From Candidatus Hydrothermarchaeales archaeon (GTDB taxonomy: Archaea; Hydrothermarchaeota; Hydrothermarchaeia; Hydrothermarchaeales; JAZGAD01), in assembly GCA_036444275.1 (NCBI GenBank), contig JAZGAD010000048.1, forward strand, positions 18,542-82,541: a DNA stretch of 64,000 nucleotides, in the 5' to 3' direction. Positions within the stretch are counted from its first letter, which is position 1, and each line of letters opens with the position of its first letter. The translations under genes and the position numbers were made by a program. Of this stretch, positions 5,798-31,161 are shown one piece after another. Below the pieces are notes generated by a model, which had not been told where the DNA came from, ran no database searches, and saw nothing but the letters and a program-made list of their open reading frames with translations.

Positions 5798-6281
5798 TTT
5801 AGCAGTATTTTTAATAATAGCTCTGATTACGATAGTTGCATCTGTTTTAGTTCTAGAATCCAAAGAGATATTCCATGCCGCATTATTTTTGGCCTTATCC
5901 TTCATTGGCGTAGCCGGATTATTTGTACTCCTCGGGGCTGAATTCCTAGCTGCTATCCAGGTTTTGATCTATGCAGGGGCTGTGATTATACTGGTCTTAT
6001 TTGCAATCGTACTGACGAAGAGGGACAAGGTAGGAGCGGGACTGGAAGAGCATGACAGCAGCTTGTTGAGGTTCGTAATAGCTGCGGCGTTTGTATTCCT
6101 ACTGGCGCTGCCCATTGCAAGTGTCGCCTGGCCTACCCACATGGTGGTTGAGTTTTCTACAGCCGCAATAGGGATTTCGATGTTCACAGAGTATGTTATC
6201 CCGTTTGAGATAATATCATTGGTATTGCTAGCTGCTTTGATCGGCGCGGTTTTTCTTGCGAAGAGGGAGGATGCATCGTGA
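5787..6281 (+). CDS. fpoJ: Fpo/complex I subunit J
   Basis: AEFLAAIQVLIYAGAV and PFEIISLVLLAALIGA motifs. Confidence 0.93.
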   Translation: MAADLAVFLIIALITIVASVLVLESKEIFHAALFLALSFIGVAGLFVLLGAEFLAAIQVLIYAGAVIILVLFAIVLTKRDKVGAGLEEHDSSLLRFVIAAAFVFLLALPIASVAWPTHMVVEFSTAAIGISMFTEYVIPFEIISLVLLAALIGAVFLAKREDAS

Positions 6282-6586
6282 TTCCACTCCTCTATTACTT
6301 GCTCCTATCGACCGTTCTCTTTGGAATCGGAGCCTACGGGGTCATGACGAAGAGAAACGCAGTACGCGTGCTGATGGCGATCGAGATAATGATGAGTGCA
6401 GCGACGATAAACCTCGTGGCCTTCTCGGCGTATATGCCACACTTAAATATATCTGGACAGATATTCGCATTGTTCGTAATAGCAATTGCTGCAGCTGAAA
6501 GCTGTATTGGACTAGCGATATACATCCAGCTGTTCCGTGTCTACGGCACTATTGATGTTAGAGAGATGAGTACCCTGAAGTGGTAA
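6278..6586 (+). CDS. fpoK: Fpo/complex I subunit K
   Basis: LFGIG.YG, AIEIM and IAAAE..IGLA motifs. Confidence 0.94.
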   Translation: MIPLLYYLLLSTVLFGIGAYGVMTKRNAVRVLMAIEIMMSAATINLVAFSAYMPHLNISGQIFALFVIAIAAAESCIGLAIYIQLFRVYGTIDVREMSTLKW

Positions 6587-6600
6587 TAGGAAGGTTTGAC

Positions 6601-6699
6601 ATGCCTGAAGCTGAAGTGATACATTCGCTAAGACCGTTTACCCCACTGCAACTAGCGCATACAGCTGTTAAAGAGTTCTTGCACATCGGAGGATTATGA
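6601..6699 (+). pseudogene. 32-aa minigene: first and last residues of an MrpD-type gene joined by an internal deletion
   Basis: MPEAEVIHSLRP+FTPLQLAHTAVKEFLHIGGL* matches the N-terminus (MVAEVVQSIRP) and C-terminus (YTPFRLTHAAVRQFLHMPALF) of the 500-aa subunit at 19730..21232; purine-rich RBS upstream; ATGA overlap with the next gene. Confidence 0.75.
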
Positions 6700-24728: not shown

Positions 24729-25151
24729 TTACTCATATTCCTCCGCTATTGTGTAAAAGAGCGTCTTCCCAGTGCTCGCGACCTTGAAGCCTATTACCAC
24801 GTTAATCGCTAGGATTATACCGCCGCTGAAAAGCTTTCCAGGGCTCCCTATTGGTATACCTACAATCTTATTTGCAAGGAAAGTGCCCCCCAAGACAATG
24901 CCTACTAGACCTATCAATGCATAGAAAAAAGTAGAGCTCTCAAGAACAGTAGACAATAGATGGTTGGCTCTTCTACGCCCTTCGTCTAAGCCGAACACCA
25001 CGGCGAGTAATATCATGCTCGCCCCTATTACAGCACCCCCTTGGAAACCGCCTCCAGGGGTTAGGTGTCCATGGAAAATGATGTACAGCCCATACATCTG
25101 TATGAAGGGAATCATTAACCTAGCCGTCGTCTTAATGATGAGATCTTCCAT
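24729..25151 (-). CDS. mrpB: MrpB/MbhF subunit
   Basis: HGHLTPGGGFQGG motif; likely start MEDLII. Confidence 0.92.
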   Translation of the reverse strand: MEDLIIKTTARLMIPFIQMYGLYIIFHGHLTPGGGFQGGAVIGASMILLAVVFGLDEGRRRANHLLSTVLESSTFFYALIGLVGIVLGGTFLANKIVGIPIGSPGKLFSGGIILAINVVIGFKVASTGKTLFYTIAEEYE

Positions 25152-25443
25152 CTTTTTCCTCCTGCAATGCGAGAATAGAGATAACGCCAAGGGCAGCTGT
25201 ATAGAGCACAGTGGCCTCGCCTAGAGTGTCGTAAGCTCGATAGTCAGCGATTATGCTGGCAACGATGTTCAGCGCCCCTGTCTCCTCCACGTTTTTCGTT
25301 ACGTATCTCGGTACAACATGGGTGTATGCTGGTGCGTTGGGATCACCGAATCTAGGCATCTCAGCGACTAGGGAGACGAGGATGTAGCCTATTAACAACA
25401 CGAAGACTAGAGCTACAAGCCTCCTCCCACCTATCCTCTTCAT
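25132..25443 (-). CDS. MbhE-like subunit (split MrpA C-terminal part)
   Basis: TGALNIVASIIADYRAYDTLGEATV motif. Confidence 0.9.
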   Translation of the reverse strand: MKRIGGRRLVALVFVLLIGYILVSLVAEMPRFGDPNAPAYTHVVPRYVTKNVEETGALNIVASIIADYRAYDTLGEATVLYTAALGVISILALQEEKDGRSHH

Positions 25444-25685
25444 TCCTCCTCCCACCTCGTGGTCTTACTTATCGTTGCTACAAAGAGCATCGTCGTGATA
25501 CCAGCTCCAACCGCTGCCTCGGTTATGGCTACATCGGGTGCATTCAGTTGCTGCCATATAATCGACATGACCATGCTATATGCAGAGAAAATCACCGTCG
25601 CTGCGAGCAGGTCCTTTGTGCGTATGACCTCTATGGCGCATACTACGAGGAAGAATAGAAATATCAGGTCTAGAATCCATATCAT
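25440..25685 (-). CDS. MbhD/DUF4040-like subunit
   Basis: LNAPDVAITEAAVGAG motif. Confidence 0.9.
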   Translation of the reverse strand: MIWILDLIFLFFLVVCAIEVIRTKDLLAATVIFSAYSMVMSIIWQQLNAPDVAITEAAVGAGITTMLFVATISKTTRWEEE

Positions 25686-26008
25686 CTCTTCACCCCCTTG
25701 TACTCGTCGACCACGCTTCCCTCCCATAGCTCCACGCCGCTTACATAGGCGGCTTTAGCTATAGCGTGCGCCGTAGTGGGGTTTACCCATACAATGAAGA
25801 CTATAATCAGAAGGATCTTGAAGCTAGTAAAAGATAAACCGGAATAAATAGCAAGGCCTAGGAATATGGAGATAGCACCGAGGGTATCGCATTTTGTCGT
25901 TGCGTGCATCCTCGTGTATACGTCTGGAAACCTTAAGAGGCCTATGGTGCCGATTACGAAGAAGAATACCCCCATCAGTAATAATGCTAGAACGACGATG
26001 TCGATCAT
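25682..26008 (-). CDS. mrpG: MrpG subunit
   Basis: GLLRFPDVYTRMHATTK and NPTTAHAIAKA motifs. Confidence 0.93.
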   Translation of the reverse strand: MIDIVVLALLLMGVFFFVIGTIGLLRFPDVYTRMHATTKCDTLGAISIFLGLAIYSGLSFTSFKILLIIVFIVWVNPTTAHAIAKAAYVSGVELWEGSVVDEYKGVKR

Positions 26009-26277
26009 CCTGTCACCTTCCCTGTTTCCAAATATTTCGATATGGTTATAGCTGATAGGAAGTTGATCAAGGCATAGACGATGGCAACGTCTATGTAGAG
26101 GGGATGACCGTATATGAATGCGAATAGCACTAGGATAACCAGGGTCTTGGTGCCGATGACGTTTATCGCGATAAGCCTATCCGGCAAAGATGGGCCTTTT
26201 ACACCCCTATAGAGACAGAGGAAGCTCGTGAAGCCGAGTATTATGCCTATTGCCACGAAGACCGTAGCAGGAATCAT
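26005..26277 (-). CDS. mrpF: MrpF subunit
   Basis: GPSLPDRLIA and YIDVAIVYALINF motifs. Confidence 0.92.
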   Translation of the reverse strand: MIPATVFVAIGIILGFTSFLCLYRGVKGPSLPDRLIAINVIGTKTLVILVLFAFIYGHPLYIDVAIVYALINFLSAITISKYLETGKVTG

Positions 26278-26789
26278 TCCATCGCCTCCAGCTTTTCCAG
26301 TCTGTCCTTCATATGCCACTTCTTCACGCCTTCAGCGGCTTCTGTCGTCAGTGCATGCACATAGTAGGTGTTATTTATGAGGTCTACAGTTAGAGTACCT
26401 GGAGTGAGGGTGATGGAGTTCGCAAGCGTAACCTTGGTGATGTCCTTGCGGAGTTTCGTCTCGAATTTCACTATACCCGGAGATATCGGCATCTTTGGGT
26501 CTAGCACGATGCGTGCAACCTGGATGTTGGCCTTTATTATCTCAAATATAAAGTGGGCTACATAGCTAAAAAGAAATAATGCAAGAACTTTCGGTCTTGG
26601 AAGCTTCTCTCCCCTCTGCACGAGAAGGTCACGGGAAAACGTAGCTATAAGCAGGGCAGAGAGGATGCCAACGAAGACGTGTTGCAGGTCAATGGTGGAT
26701 GAGACGAACATCCAGAATAAAAACAGGATAGCAGATGCGATCAGGATATCGCTATTATCTCTTATACCTTTACTTCTTAATCTTACCAC
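26274..26789 (-). CDS. mrpE: MrpE subunit
   Basis: ANIQVA, ISPGIV and LANSITLTPGT motifs. Confidence 0.93.
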   Translation of the reverse strand: MVRLRSKGIRDNSDILIASAILFLFWMFVSSTIDLQHVFVGILSALLIATFSRDLLVQRGEKLPRPKVLALFLFSYVAHFIFEIIKANIQVARIVLDPKMPISPGIVKFETKLRKDITKVTLANSITLTPGTLTVDLINNTYYVHALTTEAAEGVKKWHMKDRLEKLEAME

Positions 26790-26810: not shown

Positions 26811-27635
26811 TTAGTAGTCGACTCCGATTTTAGGCCTGGATTTTGGCTTGGGTTTCGACTCATCTCTAGGGAGACTCGCCAGCTCTGCCATCTTCAGTTT
26901 ATACGTGCGTGAAAGGCTCACAGCAAACGGCAGCAGTACTGTAGCCAGCACTACATGGAAGATATCTTGGAGTGCATGGGTCATGATGTACGCGGCAGCA
27001 AGCCTCTCGATGTCTACATACCTGCCAATCATGATGTCGATTGTTAGCAGGGAAACCAGGATGGAGACCAACGGTACGTGCACCGACAGGAAAGGATCGA
27101 CTATCTCGCGGGTTTTACGAAGCAGAATTGCAACAAGGATTACTGTTGGAATTGAAGTGAGATACAAAAAGGGGCCCTCGACCCGTACATCCCAAGGTGA
27201 CTCAGCCATACTTGCCATAATTATTATGAGGGTACTCGTAGCAGCGAGAGCTATCATACCTATCTCCGTCGATATCGCATCACTATCATCGCCTATTTGT
27301 TCGCTGCTGAATTCTTTAACCCCGAGATAGAGGAATATCAATGCAAGAGGAGCAGCGATCATATGCATGTAGTGGAAGAAGTCATGGATGAAGGGCTCAG
27401 CAGAGAAATGCTCGCCTGCCTCGCCCAAGCCTATGAGGCCAATGTAGAATATCGCCCACAACATCGCCTGCCATGAAAATTTTGTGTCCTTCAGCATGGT
27501 GTATATGATCACAATGGCTGCAATACTCGCTAAAAACAGGAAGGTCGCAGCATAGATATGGACATAGAGTTCCATCATGCCGTGGTGCCCAATCGTCTGA
27601 CCTATCAACATTCCAGCTTCATCAAAATAAACCAT
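26811..27635 (-). CDS. Polytopic membrane protein rich in intramembrane His, first gene of the mrp operon
   Basis: About 7 TM; VHIY, GEAGEHF, HDFFHYMHM and THALQDIFH; 21 bp upstream of mrpE. Confidence 0.75.
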   Translation of the reverse strand: MVYFDEAGMLIGQTIGHHGMMELYVHIYAATFLFLASIAAIVIIYTMLKDTKFSWQAMLWAIFYIGLIGLGEAGEHFSAEPFIHDFFHYMHMIAAPLALIFLYLGVKEFSSEQIGDDSDAISTEIGMIALAATSTLIIIMASMAESPWDVRVEGPFLYLTSIPTVILVAILLRKTREIVDPFLSVHVPLVSILVSLLTIDIMIGRYVDIERLAAAYIMTHALQDIFHVVLATVLLPFAVSLSRTYKLKMAELASLPRDESKPKPKSRPKIGVDY

Positions 27636-27773: not shown

Positions 27774-29816
27774 ATGGTCTTCAGCATCTCGTGCGATAAC
27801 GGCACGCTGAAGATGTTCGATAAGGTGGAGAGGAAGGTCGTCCGGTTTGGGGTGGAAGGCTGGGAGTTTACTGATAAGAGCTATTGGTTCCGCTTCCCGG
27901 TGGATGAGACATTTTCAGGTAGGTGTAAGAAGGTAGAATATGATACCCATCTCACTTACATCCGAAGGAAGGAAGACTACGAGCTCCTAGTGCACGTGAG
28001 GAATGGTGTCAAGCGTTCGCTACCGAAGGATAAGTACATCATCGAGATTGATGCCCATTTCAAGATCTACCTCTATGTATACTCTACCATACGCGTGGAG
28101 TGTGACAAGGAGGCTAATGTATCCCTCTCCTTCGATCCTAAGGCCCAGTTAATTTTCGGGGTTAGGTCCTACCGCCGCCGCCCAGAAGCAACGATCAGGA
28201 CTACTAAGGATATCGAGGGCATCGCTAGGGCTATATCTCTGCTGTCATCCTCCATCAAAGTGGCTAGCCCAGAGAGAAGTTATCCCACACTACGGGGCCA
28301 CCCACCTCTTATTGAGTTTTCTGGCGAGCCTTCTACAGATATTGAGAAATTGGAGAGCGGGGTGGAGATCTTCTTGCCCATGAAGCTTGCCTATCTCTAC
28401 GTGGCTTCGCCACTAGCATATTACCTGCTAGCAGACATAAGGTTCGGGGAGCCCAGGATCACCTGTAACAATGGCTTCCAGTACCCACTATCCAAGTTAC
28501 CGAGGTTCGAGGACGAGGTCAACCAGACCCTTCAGAAGGTGTTCTTCTTAGACTGCCTGGTGAGGAATGCCGGACTGTACAAGCCAGATCTATACGAACT
28601 TAAAGCCTTGAAAGGACTAGATTTGGATATAAAGGAACTTTATTCCATGAGCATCCAGGAGCAACTACCCATATACATGGGCATCCCAATAGACAAGCTC
28701 AAGCCCTTTATGCCTACTTGGCACCTCGCCTCTTACGTTAACCCAGATATGGATAACGCTAAGGCCTTGCCATTCTTGCTTAACAACCTATCCACTATCT
28801 ATTTGGCTCGCTCTAGGAAGATTTCTCCAAGGGATGTGTCTAAGCTAAGCTTTAACGAACTCTTCAGAGGCAATGTGATAAGGGAGATAGAGGAGAAGAC
28901 TATAGCAAAACCGGTGCTGAAGGAAGCCCAGAGCCATCTATGGCTGGCTCCAGAGAAGCCTATAGACGTGGCCAAGATGAATCCCGATGCCGTTTATAAT
29001 CAACTTAACTTTGAACATGACAAAGGGAGGATAAGAGTTGCCTTAGTGCTGAACGACGAGGAGATGCTGCGGGAAAAAGACACGGTACAGAACATTTATG
29101 CTCAGCGAAAGGACATCCCTCTGGATGTTGAGATATTTGACTTCTTGCAAAAAGATGAATTGGCAGGTATCTTTGAGGAGGGATACGACCTAGTACACTA
29201 CATCGGGCACTGTGATGAAAGGGGGCTCCAATGCGCAGATGGCTTTCTCAAAATCAAGGAAATCCAAAAGAACAATACACCTGCCTTCTTCCTCAATGCT
29301 TGCAAAAGCTACGAGGAGGGAATGGACCTGGTTAGTAGTGGCTCTGTCGGCGGAGTTGTAACCCTCTACTACGTGCCCAATGAACAGGCTTTAAAAATTG
29401 GATACACCTTCTCCATATTGCTGACCCTTGGCTTCCCTATAGAAAAGGCGATCAGTTTATCAAAAATGGGGAGCTTGAGCGGTAGAGATTATCTGGTATT
29501 GGGAGATGGGAATTATTGCCTCATGCAAAATCCCCGACTAAATACCGTATTTTTATTCGAAATAAGCAGTACAAAACAGGGCAGATTCCGATTACTTGAA
29601 AAGAACTGTGGATACCAAATAGGCGGATATTTTTACTCTGATCTCGATAAGAAGTGCTACCTTTTTTATAACGAGGCTAAATCGGAACTCAGCCGCTCAG
29701 AACTCTTAAAGCTACTAGAAAAGACGAAGACCAGTGTTCCCGTTATATACGAGGACAAACTCTTTTTCTCTGAAGAAATTTCTGATATATTTAAAAATAA
29801 AAAGAAGGGAGGATGA
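27774..29816 (+). CDS. Caspase/CHAT-like (clan CD) protease-domain protein
   Basis: DLVHYIGH and FFLNAC match the CHAT His/Cys dyad pattern; SPERSYPTLRGHPP motif recalled from an uncharacterised haloarchaeal family. Confidence 0.75.
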   Translation: MVFSISCDNGTLKMFDKVERKVVRFGVEGWEFTDKSYWFRFPVDETFSGRCKKVEYDTHLTYIRRKEDYELLVHVRNGVKRSLPKDKYIIEIDAHFKIYLYVYSTIRVECDKEANVSLSFDPKAQLIFGVRSYRRRPEATIRTTKDIEGIARAISLLSSSIKVASPERSYPTLRGHPPLIEFSGEPSTDIEKLESGVEIFLPMKLAYLYVASPLAYYLLADIRFGEPRITCNNGFQYPLSKLPRFEDEVNQTLQKVFFLDCLVRNAGLYKPDLYELKALKGLDLDIKELYSMSIQEQLPIYMGIPIDKLKPFMPTWHLASYVNPDMDNAKALPFLLNNLSTIYLARSRKISPRDVSKLSFNELFRGNVIREIEEKTIAKPVLKEAQSHLWLAPEKPIDVAKMNPDAVYNQLNFEHDKGRIRVALVLNDEEMLREKDTVQNIYAQRKDIPLDVEIFDFLQKDELAGIFEEGYDLVHYIGHCDERGLQCADGFLKIKEIQKNNTPAFFLNACKSYEEGMDLVSSGSVGGVVTLYYVPNEQALKIGYTFSILLTLGFPIEKAISLSKMGSLSGRDYLVLGDGNYCLMQNPRLNTVFLFEISSTKQGRFRLLEKNCGYQIGGYFYSDLDKKCYLFYNEAKSELSRSELLKLLEKTKTSVPVIYEDKLFFSEEISDIFKNKKKGG

Positions 29817-29825
29817 CTCCCCCCT

Positions 29826-29945
29826 CTAAGGCCCATAGCTACCGCCGCCAGCAGCTACGATGCCGCTGAGTACCGTCAGAGTTGTAACTATTACAACTGG
29901 CAACATCGGCCTTGACAGGACAAAATCCGAAATTTTTTGCCTCAT
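29826..29945 (-). CDS. 39-aa signal-peptide-like precursor MRQKISDFVLSRPMLPVVIVTTLTVLSGIVAAGGGSYGP
   Basis: Perfect AGGAGGTGA RBS 5 nt before the ATG, TATA-like TTTAAAATA upstream, TAG stop; convergent with the protease gene. Confidence 0.85.
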   Translation of the reverse strand: MRQKISDFVLSRPMLPVVIVTTLTVLSGIVAAGGGSYGP

Positions 29946-30139
29946 GCTTCTCACCTCCTTTGCGTTTGAGGTGAGGTAGGGAAGCCCTACTATTTTAAAT
30001 TCGGGAAATCCGTAAAAAATTATAACCCTCTATAAAATCAAAATATTACTTAAAAACTAGCTAAACCTTGAATGAGCGTATATTAGAATGTATATTTAAA
30101 TAATAATGAGATATTATGCCCCCAAAGAATATTACGTCC

Positions 30140-30325
30140 CTAACTTGCCCTCTGTTGATAACTTCTGAGCATATCGTCGATGGTATTTGCTACCTCTTTG
30201 AAGTCGAGTTCCTTGCTTAAATGCTCGTCGGCTTTTGCATACTCAAAACTCCTCTTCTTATCCTCTGGATCAGACCTCACGGGAAAAATTCTTGAAAGAT
30301 TAAAATAAGGGCACCCCTCCCCCAT
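30140..30325 (-). CDS. Small hypothetical protein
   Basis: 61-aa charged helical ORF between the peptide gene and the regulator; start uncertain. Confidence 0.4.
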   Translation of the reverse strand: MGEGCPYFNLSRIFPVRSDPEDKKRSFEYAKADEHLSKELDFKEVANTIDDMLRSYQQRAS

Positions 30326-30465
30326 CGGAAGGGTTCCCCCCTATCCGGAGGGTCCATAACCCCCTTATCCTCATCCTTTATTATATTTTGGTAATCCGGA
30401 AAAAACTCAAAATAGCTTAAAAATTGATAAAAAGCTTTATATGCGATTAAAACATAATTTGAGAT

Positions 30466-30846
30466 ATGGGTATCGAAGAAACTGTGCGATCAATAAAAGG
30501 GCGCTTCAAAGAGGATACTATAGTGGATTTTGTGCAATTGACTAAACTATTTGGAGAGCCTAGGTACCAGTTGCTCATAAAGAAGGCCCTGGATCTAGAG
30601 TCACGGATCTTGATTTCAGCAGCAAAGAATAGAGAGCTCTACCAGGACGTGATGAACTGGGCCGATAAAAAGGGGAAAGTAAAGAAATCAACCTTATCTG
30701 ACCGAAAGCACTACCTCGTTGAACTCGGCCTTATCTCTGAAGAAGCTGAAAAGAAAGATGGAGGGAGGGGACGCCCCAGGAAGCGCCTCTGCATGACCGA
30801 GGGGAATAGACAGCGGTTTGAAGAGTTATTCGGCGAACCTCTTTGA
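30466..30846 (+). CDS. TbsP-like winged-HTH transcription regulator (C-terminal domain only)
   Basis: LISAAKNRELYQDVMNWA..KSTLSDRK..L.ELGLI..E..GRPRKRL resembles the haloarchaeal TbsP/DUF5821 C-terminal HTH; TTTATAT TATA upstream. Confidence 0.7.
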   Translation: MGIEETVRSIKGRFKEDTIVDFVQLTKLFGEPRYQLLIKKALDLESRILISAAKNRELYQDVMNWADKKGKVKKSTLSDRKHYLVELGLISEEAEKKDGGRGRPRKRLCMTEGNRQRFEELFGEPL

Positions 30847-30869: not shown

Positions 30870-30944
30870 TGCCCCGGTCGGGATTCGAACCCGAGTCACA
30901 GCCTCGAAAGGGCCGCATGATTGGCCGAGCTACACTACCGGGGC
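30870..30944 (-). tRNA. tRNA-Glu(TTC)
   Basis: Reverse strand GCCCCGG...CGGCC-CT-TTC-GA-GGCTG...GGTTCGAATCC...CCGGGGCA cloverleaf. Confidence 0.96.
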
Positions 30945-31088
30945 TTCAACTATTATAATTGAAGGCGTTTTATTTATTTTTGGGCTTCCCTGGAGTTATC
31001 TGAGCTGACAAAAAAAAGGCAAATGCCTTCCTATCGTCTATAATCCTATCTATCTACCATCTAAAGTCTATCGTATGTTAGTAGAATG

Positions 31089-31161
31089 TGCAGCCGCCGG
31101 GATTTGAACCCGAGTTGGGAGCTTGGAAGGCTCCAGTCCTAGCCAGCTAGACCACGGCTGC
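31089..31161 (-). tRNA. tRNA-Gly(TCC)
   Basis: Reverse strand GCAGCCG...GGAGC-CT-TCC-AA-GCTCC...GGTTCAAATCC...CGGCTGCA. Confidence 0.96.

Follow-up and report, generated by a model that had tools for sequence, protein, structure and literature searches.

What does an archaeon do with a large caspase-like protease, a micropeptide of 39 residues and a winged-helix protein that are encoded side by side? The locus that raises this question lies in the window, the whole 64,000-nucleotide stretch of DNA analyzed here from a Candidatus Hydrothermarchaeales archaeon (contig JAZGAD010000048.1, positions 18,542 to 82,541). A preliminary description of the locus, made from the sequence, proposed a signalling system in which a heptapeptide is exported, released by cleavage and sensed or processed by the protease, which in turn controls the regulator. 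The gene set is present across distant archaea and looks like an undescribed peptide-sensing switch. Literature searches found no paper describing a protease/micropeptide/regulator module of this kind.

Arrangement of the locus

The protease and micropeptide genes are convergent, with 9 bp (29817-29825) between their stop codons, and the winged-helix gene is divergent from the micropeptide open reading frame (ORF) (Table 1). The elements first reported for the convergent pair are all present in the sequence: the 680-aa protein with its His/Cys dyad, the adjoining 39-aa ORF and, with the latter, a strong ribosome-binding site (presumably a match to the 3' end of 16S rRNA), a basic start, a hydrophobic core, V-A-A and the tail GGGSYGP. 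The micropeptide reads, in order, MRQKISDFVLSRP, MLPVVIVTTLTVL, SGIVAA and GGGSYGP. By eye its layout suggests a signal sequence: R2, K4 and R12 are basic, a 13-mer is hydrophobic and V-A-A precedes G33. Its Kyte-Doolittle 19-mer maximum is 2.21. An alternative upstream GTG start at 29954 gives a micropeptide of 42 aa.

A spacer of 520 nt separates the micropeptide ORF from the winged-helix gene and holds a 61-aa ORF, which went unmentioned in the preliminary description. This ORF resembles part of receiver proteins of about 125 aa in 31 of 41 related genomes (full-length examples exist), and a search across the remaining protease loci did not find it there. It is probably a gene remnant that lies outside the conserved module.

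Table 1. Features of the protease/micropeptide locus, by position in the window
Feature	Positions	Strand	Remarks
Protease gene	27774..29816	+	ORF, 680 aa
E167-RSYPTLRGHPP-178 motif	28272..28307	+	Conserved wall of the predicted peptide pocket
Catalytic His motif HYIGHC	29196..29213	+	His479 = 29208-29210
Catalytic Cys motif FFLNAC	29286..29303	+	Cys510 = 29301-29303
Micropeptide gene, putative DUF7503 superfamily, 39 aa	29826..29945	-	Stop 29826-29828, ATG 29943-29945
Micropeptide tail GGGSYGP	codons 29829-29849	-	C-terminal end of the 39-aa ORF
Shine-Dalgarno-type site GGAGGTGA	29951..29958	-	5 nt before the micropeptide ATG, read from the sequence
61-aa ORF, C-terminal half of a CheY-like receiver domain	30140..30325	-	From related genomes
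Winged-helix gene (HTH_TbsP_C), 126 aa	30466..30846	+	Pfam PF23336; candidate output or target of the module

The protease

The 680-aa protein is a cysteine protease of clan CD (separase/gingipain/CHAT-like) with a conserved His/Cys dyad. As in other members of the clan, the His and then the Cys each follow a hydrophobic beta strand. An AF2 model of the protein (pLDDT 78) has the caspase-hemoglobinase alpha/beta fold, with Foldseek probabilities of 0.93-1.00 against separase, gingipain R, SAVED-CHAT and caspases. The best matches are separase (5u1t_A, 3.3e-5), gingipain R (1cvr, 1.5e-4) and SAVED-CHAT (8tl0, 6.8e-4); the gingipain R structures 1cvr and 4ief match at 1.5-1.8e-4, and sequence identity to the separase/gingipain-type matches is 8-13%. 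The motifs HYIGHC and FFLNAC are invariant in 30 sequences, and among 137 family representatives the catalytic His is present in 134 and the Cys in 135.

A Pfam search (hmmscan, E <= 1) placed no family over its cut-off, Peptidase_C25 alone appearing (E 0.077; 12.7 bits, cut-off 23), and gave no match to the CHAT domain (PF12770). The protease is therefore filed as clan CD and CHAT-like rather than as a member of Pfam CHAT. Homologs are named "CHAT domain-containing protein" in some databases. Besides its catalytic part, the protein has an N-terminal region specific to archaea, about 410 aa long, and a beta domain at the C-terminal end. Residues 1-410 match no Pfam family and, in the fold search, no structural relative beyond the protease's own family. 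A hydrophobicity scan suggests a cytoplasmic protein, with no signal peptide or membrane segment and no hydrophobic 19-mer above 1.27.

Conservation of the convergent Gly-Pro frame

A convergent frame ending in Gly-Pro-stop adjoins the protease gene in 76 of 80 usable homologous loci, which span Hydrothermarchaeota, Methanocellales and Halobacteria. When the frame is defined as convergent, at least 20 codons long, ending in Gly-Pro-stop and located -80 to +450 nt from the protease stop, it is found in 72 of the 80 loci as against 60 of 15,244 comparable stops (0.39%) elsewhere in the same loci. Four further loci, recognized on inspection, have a frame just outside these limits or one missed by the stop estimate; the other four (L004, L005, L007 and L024) have none, and some Hydrothermarchaeota protease paralogs likewise lack it. 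The micropeptide ORF is far beyond chance. Since the Gly (GGN), Pro (CCN) and stop (TAA/TAG/TGA) codons vary synonymously across loci, conservation is of the protein reading, not of a DNA motif. The haloarchaeal loci (glyA-protease-peptide-tbsP) are syntenic by descent and thus do not amount to 65 independent observations. The protease/peptide pairing is seen in three lineages far apart from one another, and again among paralogs.

Trios of this kind with peptides that end in GP do exist in haloarchaea, as the preliminary description had it. It had also said that the proposal would be undermined if the dyad were not conserved or if protease homologs were not consistently accompanied by peptide and regulator; neither is the case, and scanning of the flanks finds the peptide in 76/80 loci and the regulator in 68/81.

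Relationship to DUF7503

From its architecture and the position of its gene, we read the micropeptide as belonging, in diverged form, to the DUF7503 superfamily. It shares with Pfam DUF7503 (PF24335) an N-terminal Pro motif, a hydrophobic run, small residues, a variable tail and the final GP; unlike the members, it falls below the family cut-off (27 bits), with no match to the model at E <= 10. Homologs of the micropeptide lie between, L075 scoring 26.3 bits and L015 and L035 about 12-13 bits. Three residues, P13, G38 and P39, are invariant in alignments A2 and A3 (P16, G41 and P42 in the joint A3 numbering). The A3 profile retrieves 1025 proteins, mostly carrying PF24335, and a GP end is present in 118 of the 120 matches listed, a figure that is biased because the profile itself ends in GP. 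A set of 118 DUF7503 sequences shows a conserved leader, a variable uncharged stretch from -9 to -3 (the most variable positions in the family) and the invariant GP, with a tail rich in Gly, Ala, Ser and Thr. Neither DUF7503 nor DUF7504 (PF24336) has a described function.

Genes of the DUF7503 type and of the window type are both convergent to proteases of the same family. A paralogous protease adjoins all eight DUF7503 genes sampled, and of the 21 DUF7503 matches that exceed the Pfam cut-off in five haloarchaeal genomes, 20 are convergent to, and at most 81 nt from, a protease-family match.

Predicted docking of the micropeptide tail

Co-folding predicts that the protease binds the micropeptide tail, with an ipSAE of 0.83 for the pair and 0.00 for the best of three controls (unrelated proteins). 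According to the co-fold tool, 58 of 80 solved complexes attain this mark, as do 2 of 110 mismatched pairs; these counts are a rough guide here, our own alignments having been supplied. One pair was modelled; the runs share at least 61% of contacts, and the pLDDT of the peptide is low (41-43). Only residues 31-39 of the micropeptide are placed confidently. The predicted contacts are at protease residues 40-41, 58-60, 91, 93, 97, 114, 133, 167 and 170-173, and at 268-271, 589-593, 609, 615, 617-623 and 631, with the lowest expected error for 167 and 170-173 against peptide residues 37-39. They exclude His479 and Cys510 and so define a non-catalytic pocket. Of the two fates proposed at first for the peptide, being sensed by the protease thus fits better than being processed by it, as far as the model can be relied upon.

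The residues predicted to touch G38 and P39 are conserved among the 137 representatives (P171 in 127, T172 in 94, L173 in 102 and K97 in 90), and those flanking them are invariant or nearly so (R174 in 137 and G617 in 136). The pocket motif is conserved as well, with P177 in 132, P178 in 134 and R168 in 129 of the 137. Residues touching the variable tail are themselves variable, and the mean frequency of the top residue is 0.36 at contact positions versus 0.44 in the whole protein. The invariant GP in the supplied alignment may have driven the placement in the docking.

The regulator and other neighbouring genes

The winged-helix protein of the window matches Pfam HTH_TbsP_C (PF23336) over residues 8-116 (52 bits, cut-off 27.1). 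It falls far short of the NCBIfam TbsP equivalog NF047393 (36 bits, cut-off 300), and a Pfam search of its 126 aa gave no match to TbsP_N (PF19138). By these profile scores it is a TbsP C-terminal domain only and not a TbsP ortholog; the "TbsP-like regulator" of the preliminary description is thus borne out in its divergent position and its HTH_TbsP_C domain, but the likeness ends with that domain. TbsP of Haloferax volcanii (HVO_2861) has both PF19138 and PF23336, of which the window protein shares the latter. The haloarchaeal neighbours are true TbsP (418 bits against the cut-off of 300). TbsP of H. volcanii influences adhesion, motility and cell shape (PMC11023807); the available text of that paper makes no mention of this protease, the word "protease" occurring in it once.

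Of 81 loci, 68 have a TbsP-type gene downstream of the protease, 67 of them with both genes on the same strand. The Methanocellales loci have none, and the third component is therefore not universal; a gene for the KaiC-fold protein DUF7504 is linked in 21 of the 28 places without TbsP. The TbsP-linked haloarchaeal copy has glyA upstream and RNase P and proteasome subunit genes downstream in many genera. The survey of neighbouring genes found no conserved peptide importer or exporter near the protease loci, no modification enzyme conserved across lineages and, in the neighbourhoods examined, no CRISPR or CBASS genes.

A proposed peptide-sensing switch

The explanation that we favour, which may as readily be wrong as right, is that the archaeal module is a cognate pair of peptide ligand and receptor protease, with the neighbouring regulator as its likely output. 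The window would hold one copy of this module, consisting of a cytoplasmic caspase-like protease and a micro-protein of about 40 aa whose leader is conserved and whose short, uncharged tail varies but always ends in Gly-Pro-COOH. The archaea-specific N-terminal and C-terminal domains of the protease would form a peptide pocket whose ligand is the last 7-9 residues of the micro-protein. The invariant Gly-Pro end would be held by the invariant ERSYPTLRGHPP loop, K97 and G617, while variable pocket residues would read the variable tail, giving each paralogous protease a private peptide. Far from His479 and Cys510 in the primary sequence, the pocket would, when occupied, switch the protease on or off; we infer that peptide binding regulates catalysis. 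The protease would then act on the protein encoded next door, a TbsP-type regulator in the window and in one haloarchaeal clade, and the KaiC-fold DUF7504 protein in other haloarchaeal paralogs. That the neighbour is the substrate is suggested by analogy with Csx29-Csx30 and similar pairs, in which the substrate of a protease is encoded beside it.

The two partners could meet in either of two ways. Within the proposed switch, direct binding inside the cell is the more probable; export, cleavage by signal peptidase and re-uptake is a possible but weaker candidate. At least for those micropeptides that lack a hydrophobic core, binding must take place inside the cell. For the hydrophobic forms, the positive-inside rule puts the tail outside the cell and the protease has no export signal, so either an uninserted micro-protein or re-uptake is needed, and no re-uptake route is encoded nearby.

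Alternative explanations

A secreted pheromone, as first proposed, is rather unlikely. In that scheme a Sec pre-peptide would be cleaved and a GP peptide of 7-9 residues re-imported to gate the protease and so control the TbsP-type regulator; equally doubtful is the further proposal that the peptide accumulates with cell density and serves archaeal quorum or kin recognition, the paralogs being "pherotypes". Judged by eye, the hydrophobic forms do follow an n/h/c order, with basic residues first, then about 12-13 hydrophobic residues and then small ones; in the window V-A-A precedes GGGSYGP, and 101 of 118 DUF7503 sequences have A/V at -12 and A at -10, followed by the variable uncharged 9-mer. 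The nine confidently docked residues match the predicted mature peptide. In haloarchaeal genomes the protease is present in one to ten copies, and every copy has a variable peptide of its own, a pattern that resembles the Rap-Phr paralog families. Universal export is argued against by the 47 of 76 linked peptides (40 of the form ..STY[GS]GP and seven of the form ..SPYTGP) that have no hydrophobic core but retain the conserved N-terminal motif and the tail. No transporter is conserved among the neighbours, which are instead glyA and RNase P and proteasome subunit genes. Moreover, translation of a chain of 39-44 aa ends before the signal leaves the ribosome, and to our knowledge SecA is missing from archaea. 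The traits influenced by TbsP (PMC11023807) are also under an unidentified quorum signal in H. volcanii (PMC12240190). However, the Haloferax disk-forming signal is reported there to resist proteinase K and to be extractable with ethyl acetate, which points away from GP peptides as that signal.

Unlikely, too, is a RiPP-like precursor from which the protease would remove the leader, or whose variable core it would ligate or cyclise, the product acting elsewhere (e.g. as an antimicrobial or cofactor). RiPP precursors usually combine a conserved leader with a hypervariable C-terminal core, as here, and some clan-CD enzymes, such as legumains, are peptide ligases or cyclases. An Arg at -8, directly before the 7-residue tail, in 32 of the 40 ..STY[GS]GP forms would suit an Arg-specific clan-CD enzyme (gingipain R and separase are the best fold matches), although the hydrophobic forms have no basic residue ahead of the tail. 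In 19 of 81 loci a YcaO gene comes after tbsP, but no modification enzyme is conserved across lineages, and the Gly/Ala/Ser/Thr-rich tail offers few residues of the kind usually modified. The RiPP recognition element usually binds the conserved leader and not the variable core, whereas the predicted docking places the tail on the protease, apart from the catalytic dyad.

It is quite unlikely that the genes form a conflict system, i.e. a defence or addiction module with the protease as a dormant effector, the micro-protein as its inhibitor, membrane tether or trigger, and paralogs that diversify under conflict. Caspase-like and CHAT proteases are frequent defence effectors, and SAVED-CHAT is among the fold matches. 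The protease is multi-copy (133 of 151 genomes have 1-10 matches each) and patchy among the relatives of the window (3 of 41 genomes, its own included), some copies are decayed by internal stops beside surviving DUF7503 genes, and one homolog (P0073) is annotated on a plasmid. Against this stand the stable housekeeping neighbourhood of the TbsP-linked copy over many haloarchaeal genera, which is untypical of defence islands, and third genes that are regulator-like (wHTH, KaiC-fold) rather than nucleases or pore formers.

Highly improbable is a cis-regulatory arrest, in which Gly-Pro-stop would slow termination and a ribosome 9 bp from the protease stop would modulate the overlapping transcript 3' ends, so that translation of the ORF and not its product would matter: bacterial nascent chains ending in Pro terminate poorly, several arrest peptides (SecM, TnaC) end in ..GP or ..PP and in most loci the two stops overlap or lie very near each other (commonly -3 to +10 nt apart), but no gene follows the micropeptide ORF on the strand that encodes it, conservation of the N-terminal motif and leader extends far past the roughly 10 residues nearest the peptidyl-transferase centre, variability is highest in the residues just ahead of GP (known arrest motifs show the opposite), the tail is predicted to dock confidently on the protease, and the ORF is kept 1.46 kb (L009) and 470 nt (L056) from the protease.

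Significance and comparison with known systems

That protease/DUF7503 pairs are archaea-wide, gene-encoded peptide signals with protease receptors is a claim we regard as doubtful. If it were true, these pairs would give Archaea a first peptide-based system for signalling between cells (quorum or kin), and each paralog would be a private channel set by the 7-9 variable residues before the invariant Gly-Pro. The TbsP-coupled channel, to which the window's copy belongs, would feed population or self information into a haloarchaeal regulator controlling adhesion, motility and the shape of the cell.

In the RRNPP systems (Rap-Phr, PlcR-PapR, NprR-NprX and AimR-AimP) the precursor gene lies beside the receptor gene, the C-terminal 5-10 residues are active and a genome has multiple paralogous pairs. 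The archaeal genes are alike in that a short precursor gene adjoins the gene of a cytoplasmic receptor, the C-terminal end is the proposed active part, and single genomes carry multiple paralogous receptor-peptide pairs with variable peptides. They differ in that the receptor joins a clan-CD protease to a sensor region that is new, and has no TPR (Pfam and NCBIfam searches gave no TPR family, and no TPR structure is among the fold matches). The genes are convergent and not co-directional, no Opp-type importer is linked, many peptides are without a signal sequence, all peptides end in an invariant Gly-Pro, and the system belongs to archaea. Because the receptor lacks the TPR fold, the analogy drawn in the preliminary description holds at the level of logic only.

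SAVED-CHAT and TPR-CHAT/Csx29 with Csx30, ligand-gated systems of prokaryotic immunity, likewise have a clan-CD protease fused to a sensor and a probable substrate next door. The sensor here is neither SAVED nor TPR, the Pfam CHAT model is unmatched, and the proposed ligand is a gene-encoded peptide rather than a cyclic nucleotide or an RNA-bound Cas complex. Separase with securin and gingipain R with its pro-domain are also large multi-domain clan-CD enzymes, each restrained by a separate polypeptide. Securin and the gingipain pro-domain sit in the active site as pseudo-substrates, whereas the tail of the micropeptide, a partner of only about 40 aa, is predicted to dock in a distinct pocket.

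Gene organization around the protease

The protease gene in the window (G+C content, 46.5%) is followed by a convergent micropeptide gene, whose ATG is preceded by GGAGGTGA at a spacing of 5 nt, and by a gene for an HTH protein. The preliminary description had read these genes as a trio of a protease with an HYIGH/LNAC dyad, a secreted micropeptide and a TbsP-like regulator. The two protease motifs, the convergent 39-aa frame at 9 bp and the ribosome-binding site all stand, but the regulator has only the HTH_TbsP_C domain: it lacks the TbsP N-terminal domain (TbsP_N) and reaches 36 bits against the cut-off of 300 for the NCBIfam TbsP equivalog.

The 61-aa frame between the micropeptide and HTH genes is probably a truncated receiver remnant. 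Its full-length relatives are about 125 aa long and multi-copy in related genomes, and it is absent from the other protease loci examined. Upstream of the protease is a run of six small, strongly hydrophobic ORFs, which resemble by eye the subunits of a multi-subunit cation/proton antiporter, and a multi-pass membrane protein without a Pfam family is encoded between them and the protease. Neither is conserved beside protease homologs in the fetched loci.

Features of the protease region in the window
Feature	Position	Strand	Description
Six hydrophobic ORFs	24729-26789	-	short, very hydrophobic, in a row
Membrane protein	26811-27635	-	274 aa, multi-pass
Protease	27774..29816	+	680 aa, motifs HYIGHC and FFLNAC
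Micropeptide ORF MRQKISDFVLSRPMLPVVIVTTLTVLSGIVAAGGGSYGP	29826..29945	-	convergent, 9 bp past the protease stop; 39 aa from ATG, 42 aa from upstream GTG
61-aa ORF	30140..30325	-	C-terminal half of a CheY-like receiver; between small ORF and HTH gene
HTH protein	30466..30846	+	126 aa; Pfam HTH_TbsP_C, 52 bits vs cut-off 27.1
tRNA-Glu(TTC)	30870-30944	-	directly after the HTH gene
tRNA-Gly(TCC)	31088-31161	-	after the HTH gene and tRNA-Glu

Conservation of the micropeptide gene

Conservation was assessed in 80 loci fetched around protease homologs plus the window's own locus; 80 were usable after L006, which ends inside the protease gene, was dropped. In 72 of the 80 loci, the stretch between -80 and +450 nt of the protease stop has a convergent open frame that spans at least 20 codons and ends in Gly-Pro-stop. 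For comparison, these loci contain 15,244 other stops preceded by a frame of that length, and 60 of them (0.39%) follow Gly-Pro. Inspection added four loci, giving 76 of 80: L012 and L039 (in both of which the estimate of the protease stop was off), L056 (frame 470 nt from the protease) and L009 (1.46 kb from it, beyond an inserted gene). No Gly-Pro frame was found in L004, L005, L007 or L024 by this search and inspection. The expectation in the preliminary description that short frames ending in Gly-Pro flank the protease homologs was thus borne out, and the similar haloarchaeal trios that it mentioned do exist, with the protease, the Gly-Pro frame and tbsP in many Halobacteria genera.

The Gly (GGA, GGC, GGG, GGT), Pro (CCA, CCC, CCG, CCT) and stop (TAA, TAG, TGA) codons vary between loci, indicating selection for the encoded protein sequence. 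Represented among the loci are Hydrothermarchaeota, Methanocellales and many Halobacteria genera. The names of protein homologs suggest that the window's own organism belongs to the Hydrothermarchaeota or is closely related to them. The haloarchaeal loci share synteny (glyA upstream, RNase P and proteasome genes downstream) and are therefore not independent of one another; clearly independent lineages number about three, plus paralogs.

The gene inserted in the Methanocellales locus L009 (6042-7475, +) encodes 477 aa with ferredoxin domains and DUF3422, and the micropeptide gene beyond it is intact. The peptide-less Hydrothermarchaeota loci L004 and L007 have, 3' of the protease, short ORFs whose translations are nearly the same on the two strands and which look by eye like readings through a structured RNA gene. 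L023 (Natronorubrum) has two Gly-Pro frames, a short convergent one (6104-6175, -) ending ..GVTIYSGP and a longer one on the protease strand (6511-6657, +) ending ..NRVSTYSGP, suggesting that the micropeptide gene was inverted or duplicated locally.

Micropeptide forms and kinship with DUF7503

The micropeptides fall into three forms with a common Gly-Pro end. A hydrophobic core is present in 26 of 76 (and weaker in three more), a group that includes the window, Methanocellales, Halorussus and Haladaptatus. Forty lack the core and end ..[VI][ST][STI]Y[GS]GP (the Natrialbaceae form), with Arg at -8 in 32 of them, and seven, likewise coreless, end ..SPYTGP or ..SAYTGP. An N-terminal basic/aromatic motif is kept, as MRxKIRQWF in the hydrophobic form and MGVRxxRLWW in the STY[GS]GP form.

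A feature search led to the Pfam family DUF7503 (PF24335). The window peptide does not match the DUF7503 model; its homolog in locus L075 reaches 26.3 bits against a cut-off of 27. Strong matches number 2 to 13 in each of five haloarchaeal genomes. All eight DUF7503 places fetched adjoin a gene whose product, at about 690-750 aa, shares 31-35% identity with the window protease, and six of the eight micro-proteins there end in Gly-Pro. Across the five genomes, 20 of the 21 DUF7503 genes over the cut-off are convergent with a protease-family gene and at most 81 nt from its 3' end (19 within 60 nt), the other lying 2.7 kb from a protease; three sub-threshold matches also sit at protease 3' ends. 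Thus, the window pair is one member of a general two-gene module. DUF7503 matches were seen in Haloferax volcanii, and they are over the cut-off in one control genome.

A joint profile of micropeptides and DUF7503 members, which itself ends in Gly-Pro, retrieves 1025 small proteins, most with PF24335; among the 120 matches listed, 118 end in Gly-Pro. These 118 have a conserved leader, E(H/N)P(R/K)M.GVLFT..LLL(S/T)QAG.(A/V).A, and seven variable, uncharged positions (-9 to -3) rich in Gly, Ala, Ser and Thr, followed by the invariant Gly-Pro. Many micropeptide homologs are named 'DUF7503 family protein' or 'hypothetical protein' at NCBI.

The protease family

No Pfam or NCBIfam family matches the protease at cut-off, the sole hint being Peptidase_C25 (E 0.077). 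The solved structures closest to an AlphaFold2 model built from a 30-sequence alignment (mean pLDDT 78) are separase (5u1t_A, 3.3e-5) and gingipain R (1cvr, 1.5e-4), followed by the SAVED-CHAT filament (8tl0, 6.8e-4) and caspases; judged by this model, the fold relatives are all members of clan CD. The catalytic dyad, initially read as intact in the window, is conserved: none of the 30 sequences departs from His479 or Cys510, and the wider family, sampled by 137 representatives, has the His in 134 and the Cys in 135. The protein is taken to be cytoplasmic, since it shows neither a hydrophobic segment (19-mer maximum, 1.27) nor an N-terminus resembling a signal peptide. Residues 1-410 match no Pfam family and no structural relative beyond the archaeal protease family. 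No function has been described for this family, and Pfam lacks a model of its sensor half.

The family comprises 726 clusters at 50% identity (E <= 0.001). Of 151 Halobacteria genomes sampled, 133 contain it, often in more than one copy (one to ten matches apiece), and it is patchy among the relatives of the window (three of 41 genomes, its own counted). A scan of the genome collection with the single protease sequence gave no relative; the protease alignment gave 354, and because the best 80 of the 354 were used as loci, these are biased to window-like proteases, that is, to the TbsP-linked haloarchaeal clade. A quick, unrooted tree of 41 rows (two of which, L025 and L071, are mis-picked frames to be disregarded) has three clades: the haloarchaeal TbsP-linked proteases, those of Hydrothermarchaeota and Methanocellales, and the haloarchaeal DUF7503/DUF7504 paralogs. 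In G043, the genome behind L035, several paralogs (contig 1 near 914724, 1706081 and 2285413) are split or have internal stops, which points to paralog turnover; a DUF7503 gene still adjoins the decayed protease in at least one case.

The third gene

Downstream of the protease, 68 of 81 loci have a homolog of the window HTH gene, 67 of them on the protease strand, so the proposed regulator is indeed linked to the protease homologs as a TbsP-type gene. Hydrothermarchaeota are represented among them by the window, L012 and L015, the gene being on the opposite strand in L015. In Halobacteria the neighbour is full-length TbsP (418 bits; cut-off 300). The four Methanocellales loci and the Hydrothermarchaeota loci L004-L007 have housekeeping neighbours only and no HTH gene. 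L006 and L068 are too short for its presence to be judged.

Where TbsP linkage is lacking in the five genomes, a DUF7504 (PF24336) gene adjoins the protease in 21 of 28 places: upstream on the same strand in 15, divergent in one, and downstream beyond the small gene in five, which is exactly the position of TbsP. The DUF7504 model (pLDDT 90) has a KaiC CI/RecA fold (4tlb_E, 4.2e-8); a phmmer comparison with PDB sequences gave nothing meaningful. Homology between DUF7504 and TbsP was ruled out (hhalign of 17 DUF7504 against 58 TbsP rows, probability 0.2%). DUF7504 is over its cut-off in Haloferax volcanii.

In locus L090, the DUF7504 gene beside a protease paralog (38-817, +) has an N-terminal HalOD1 domain (halobacterial output domain 1; E 1.8e-10), which connects the third component with signal-transduction architectures. 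In 19 of 81 loci (L013:7372-9207, +, and 18 more), among them Halorussus, Halomicrococcus, Haladaptatus and others, the gene after tbsP encodes a YcaO-domain protein of 611 aa. Synteny alone may account for this adjacency; a link to peptide modification is possible.

Predicted docking of the peptide tail

Co-folding of the protease and the micro-protein gave a score of 0.83 against 0.00 for the best of three controls. This passes the tool's mark. Among solved complexes 58 of 80 attain that mark, and among mismatched pairs 2 of 110; these counts are a rough guide here, where alignments of our own were supplied. The runs share at least 61% of contacts, and the partner pLDDT is at least 41, leaving the micro-protein's own fold uncertain. 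To our knowledge no comparable complex has been solved, so it seems unlikely that the predictor passed by reproducing a memorised structure.

Confident placement is limited to peptide residues 31-39 (AAGGGSYGP). Their predicted contacts are in the N-terminal beta sandwich (40-41, 58-60, 91, 93, 97, 114, 133), the loop 167-173, residues 268-271 and the C-terminal beta domain (589-593, 609, 615, 617-623, 631), with the catalytic residues outside them. The lowest-error pairs place G38/P39 on 170-173, 97 and 618, and G35-Y37 on 60, 93 and 617-621. On the G38/P39 side the protease is conserved among the 137 sequences (P171 in 127, T172 in 94, L173 in 102, K97 in 90), and alongside lie R174 (137/137) and G617 (136/137). 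The residues on the G35-Y37 side are among the most variable of the protease in the same alignment. Such predicted contacts, invariant to invariant and variable to variable, form the pattern that a cognate receptor-ligand family should have.

Proposed mechanism and alternatives

That the two proteins are a cognate peptide ligand and receptor protease is the reading we adopt, at about even odds. By analogy with other prokaryotic caspase-like proteases, the Gly-Pro-terminated tail would fill the sensor pocket and gate the protease, whose likely target would be the protein encoded next door (TbsP-type here, DUF7504 elsewhere). The rival explanations are that the micro-protein has a processing or RiPP-like role, that the pair forms a conflict module, or that the small frame is a termination-stall element.

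Where ligand and receptor would meet is a separate question. The hydrophobic forms look like Sec pre-peptides, and their predicted mature part coincides with the docked nonamer; this layout favours a loop of export and re-uptake, the preliminary description having proposed export and cleavage to a heptapeptide pheromone that is sensed or processed by the protease. An encounter within the cell is favoured, in those lineages at least, by the 47 of 76 micropeptides without a hydrophobic core, the conserved N-terminal motif, the very short chain and the neighbourhoods of the fetched loci, in which no transporter is linked to the protease.

If the tail-pocket pairing is real, it would be a new gating of a caspase-like protease by a gene-encoded peptide, a concrete upstream input for TbsP and a tractable archaeal candidate for peptide signalling. 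The constant partner of the protease, a micro-protein family, has no name beyond its DUF number. The hypothesis is directly testable in model haloarchaea.

Relation to known systems

The regulator TbsP has a strong phenotype in Haloferax volcanii (PMC11023807, available text). Glucose is the only input named there, and no connection is drawn between TbsP and these neighbours; on that text, the named parts carry no known mechanism beyond TbsP genetics in this species. Supplementary tables aside, no paper was found on DUF7503; of DUF7504, DUF5821, PF24335 and PF24336, any mention was confined to the TbsP paper; and no paper was found linking CHAT-like proteases to haloarchaea. A looser literature search, judged on titles and abstracts, likewise gave nothing relevant. 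The proteomics and transcriptomics supplements of PMC12240190, PMC13464002 and PMC11023807 could contain entries for these genes.

Recent papers call archaeal cell-cell signalling barely characterised and place the shape and motility of Haloferax volcanii under the control of a quorum signal (PMC12240190 and PMC13464002, available parts). The disk-forming signal of Haloferax is resistant to proteinase K and reportedly extractable with ethyl acetate (PMC12240190, available parts), both of which argue against the peptides being that signal, and the identification was rejected as unsupported.

The logic of the module resembles that of RRNPP systems and of ligand-gated CHAT proteases. It has no match to the TPR of RRNPP nor to SAVED or CHAT models, and membership of either group therefore fails on its defining features. 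The module is rated as new at the system level and as built on a known protease clan.
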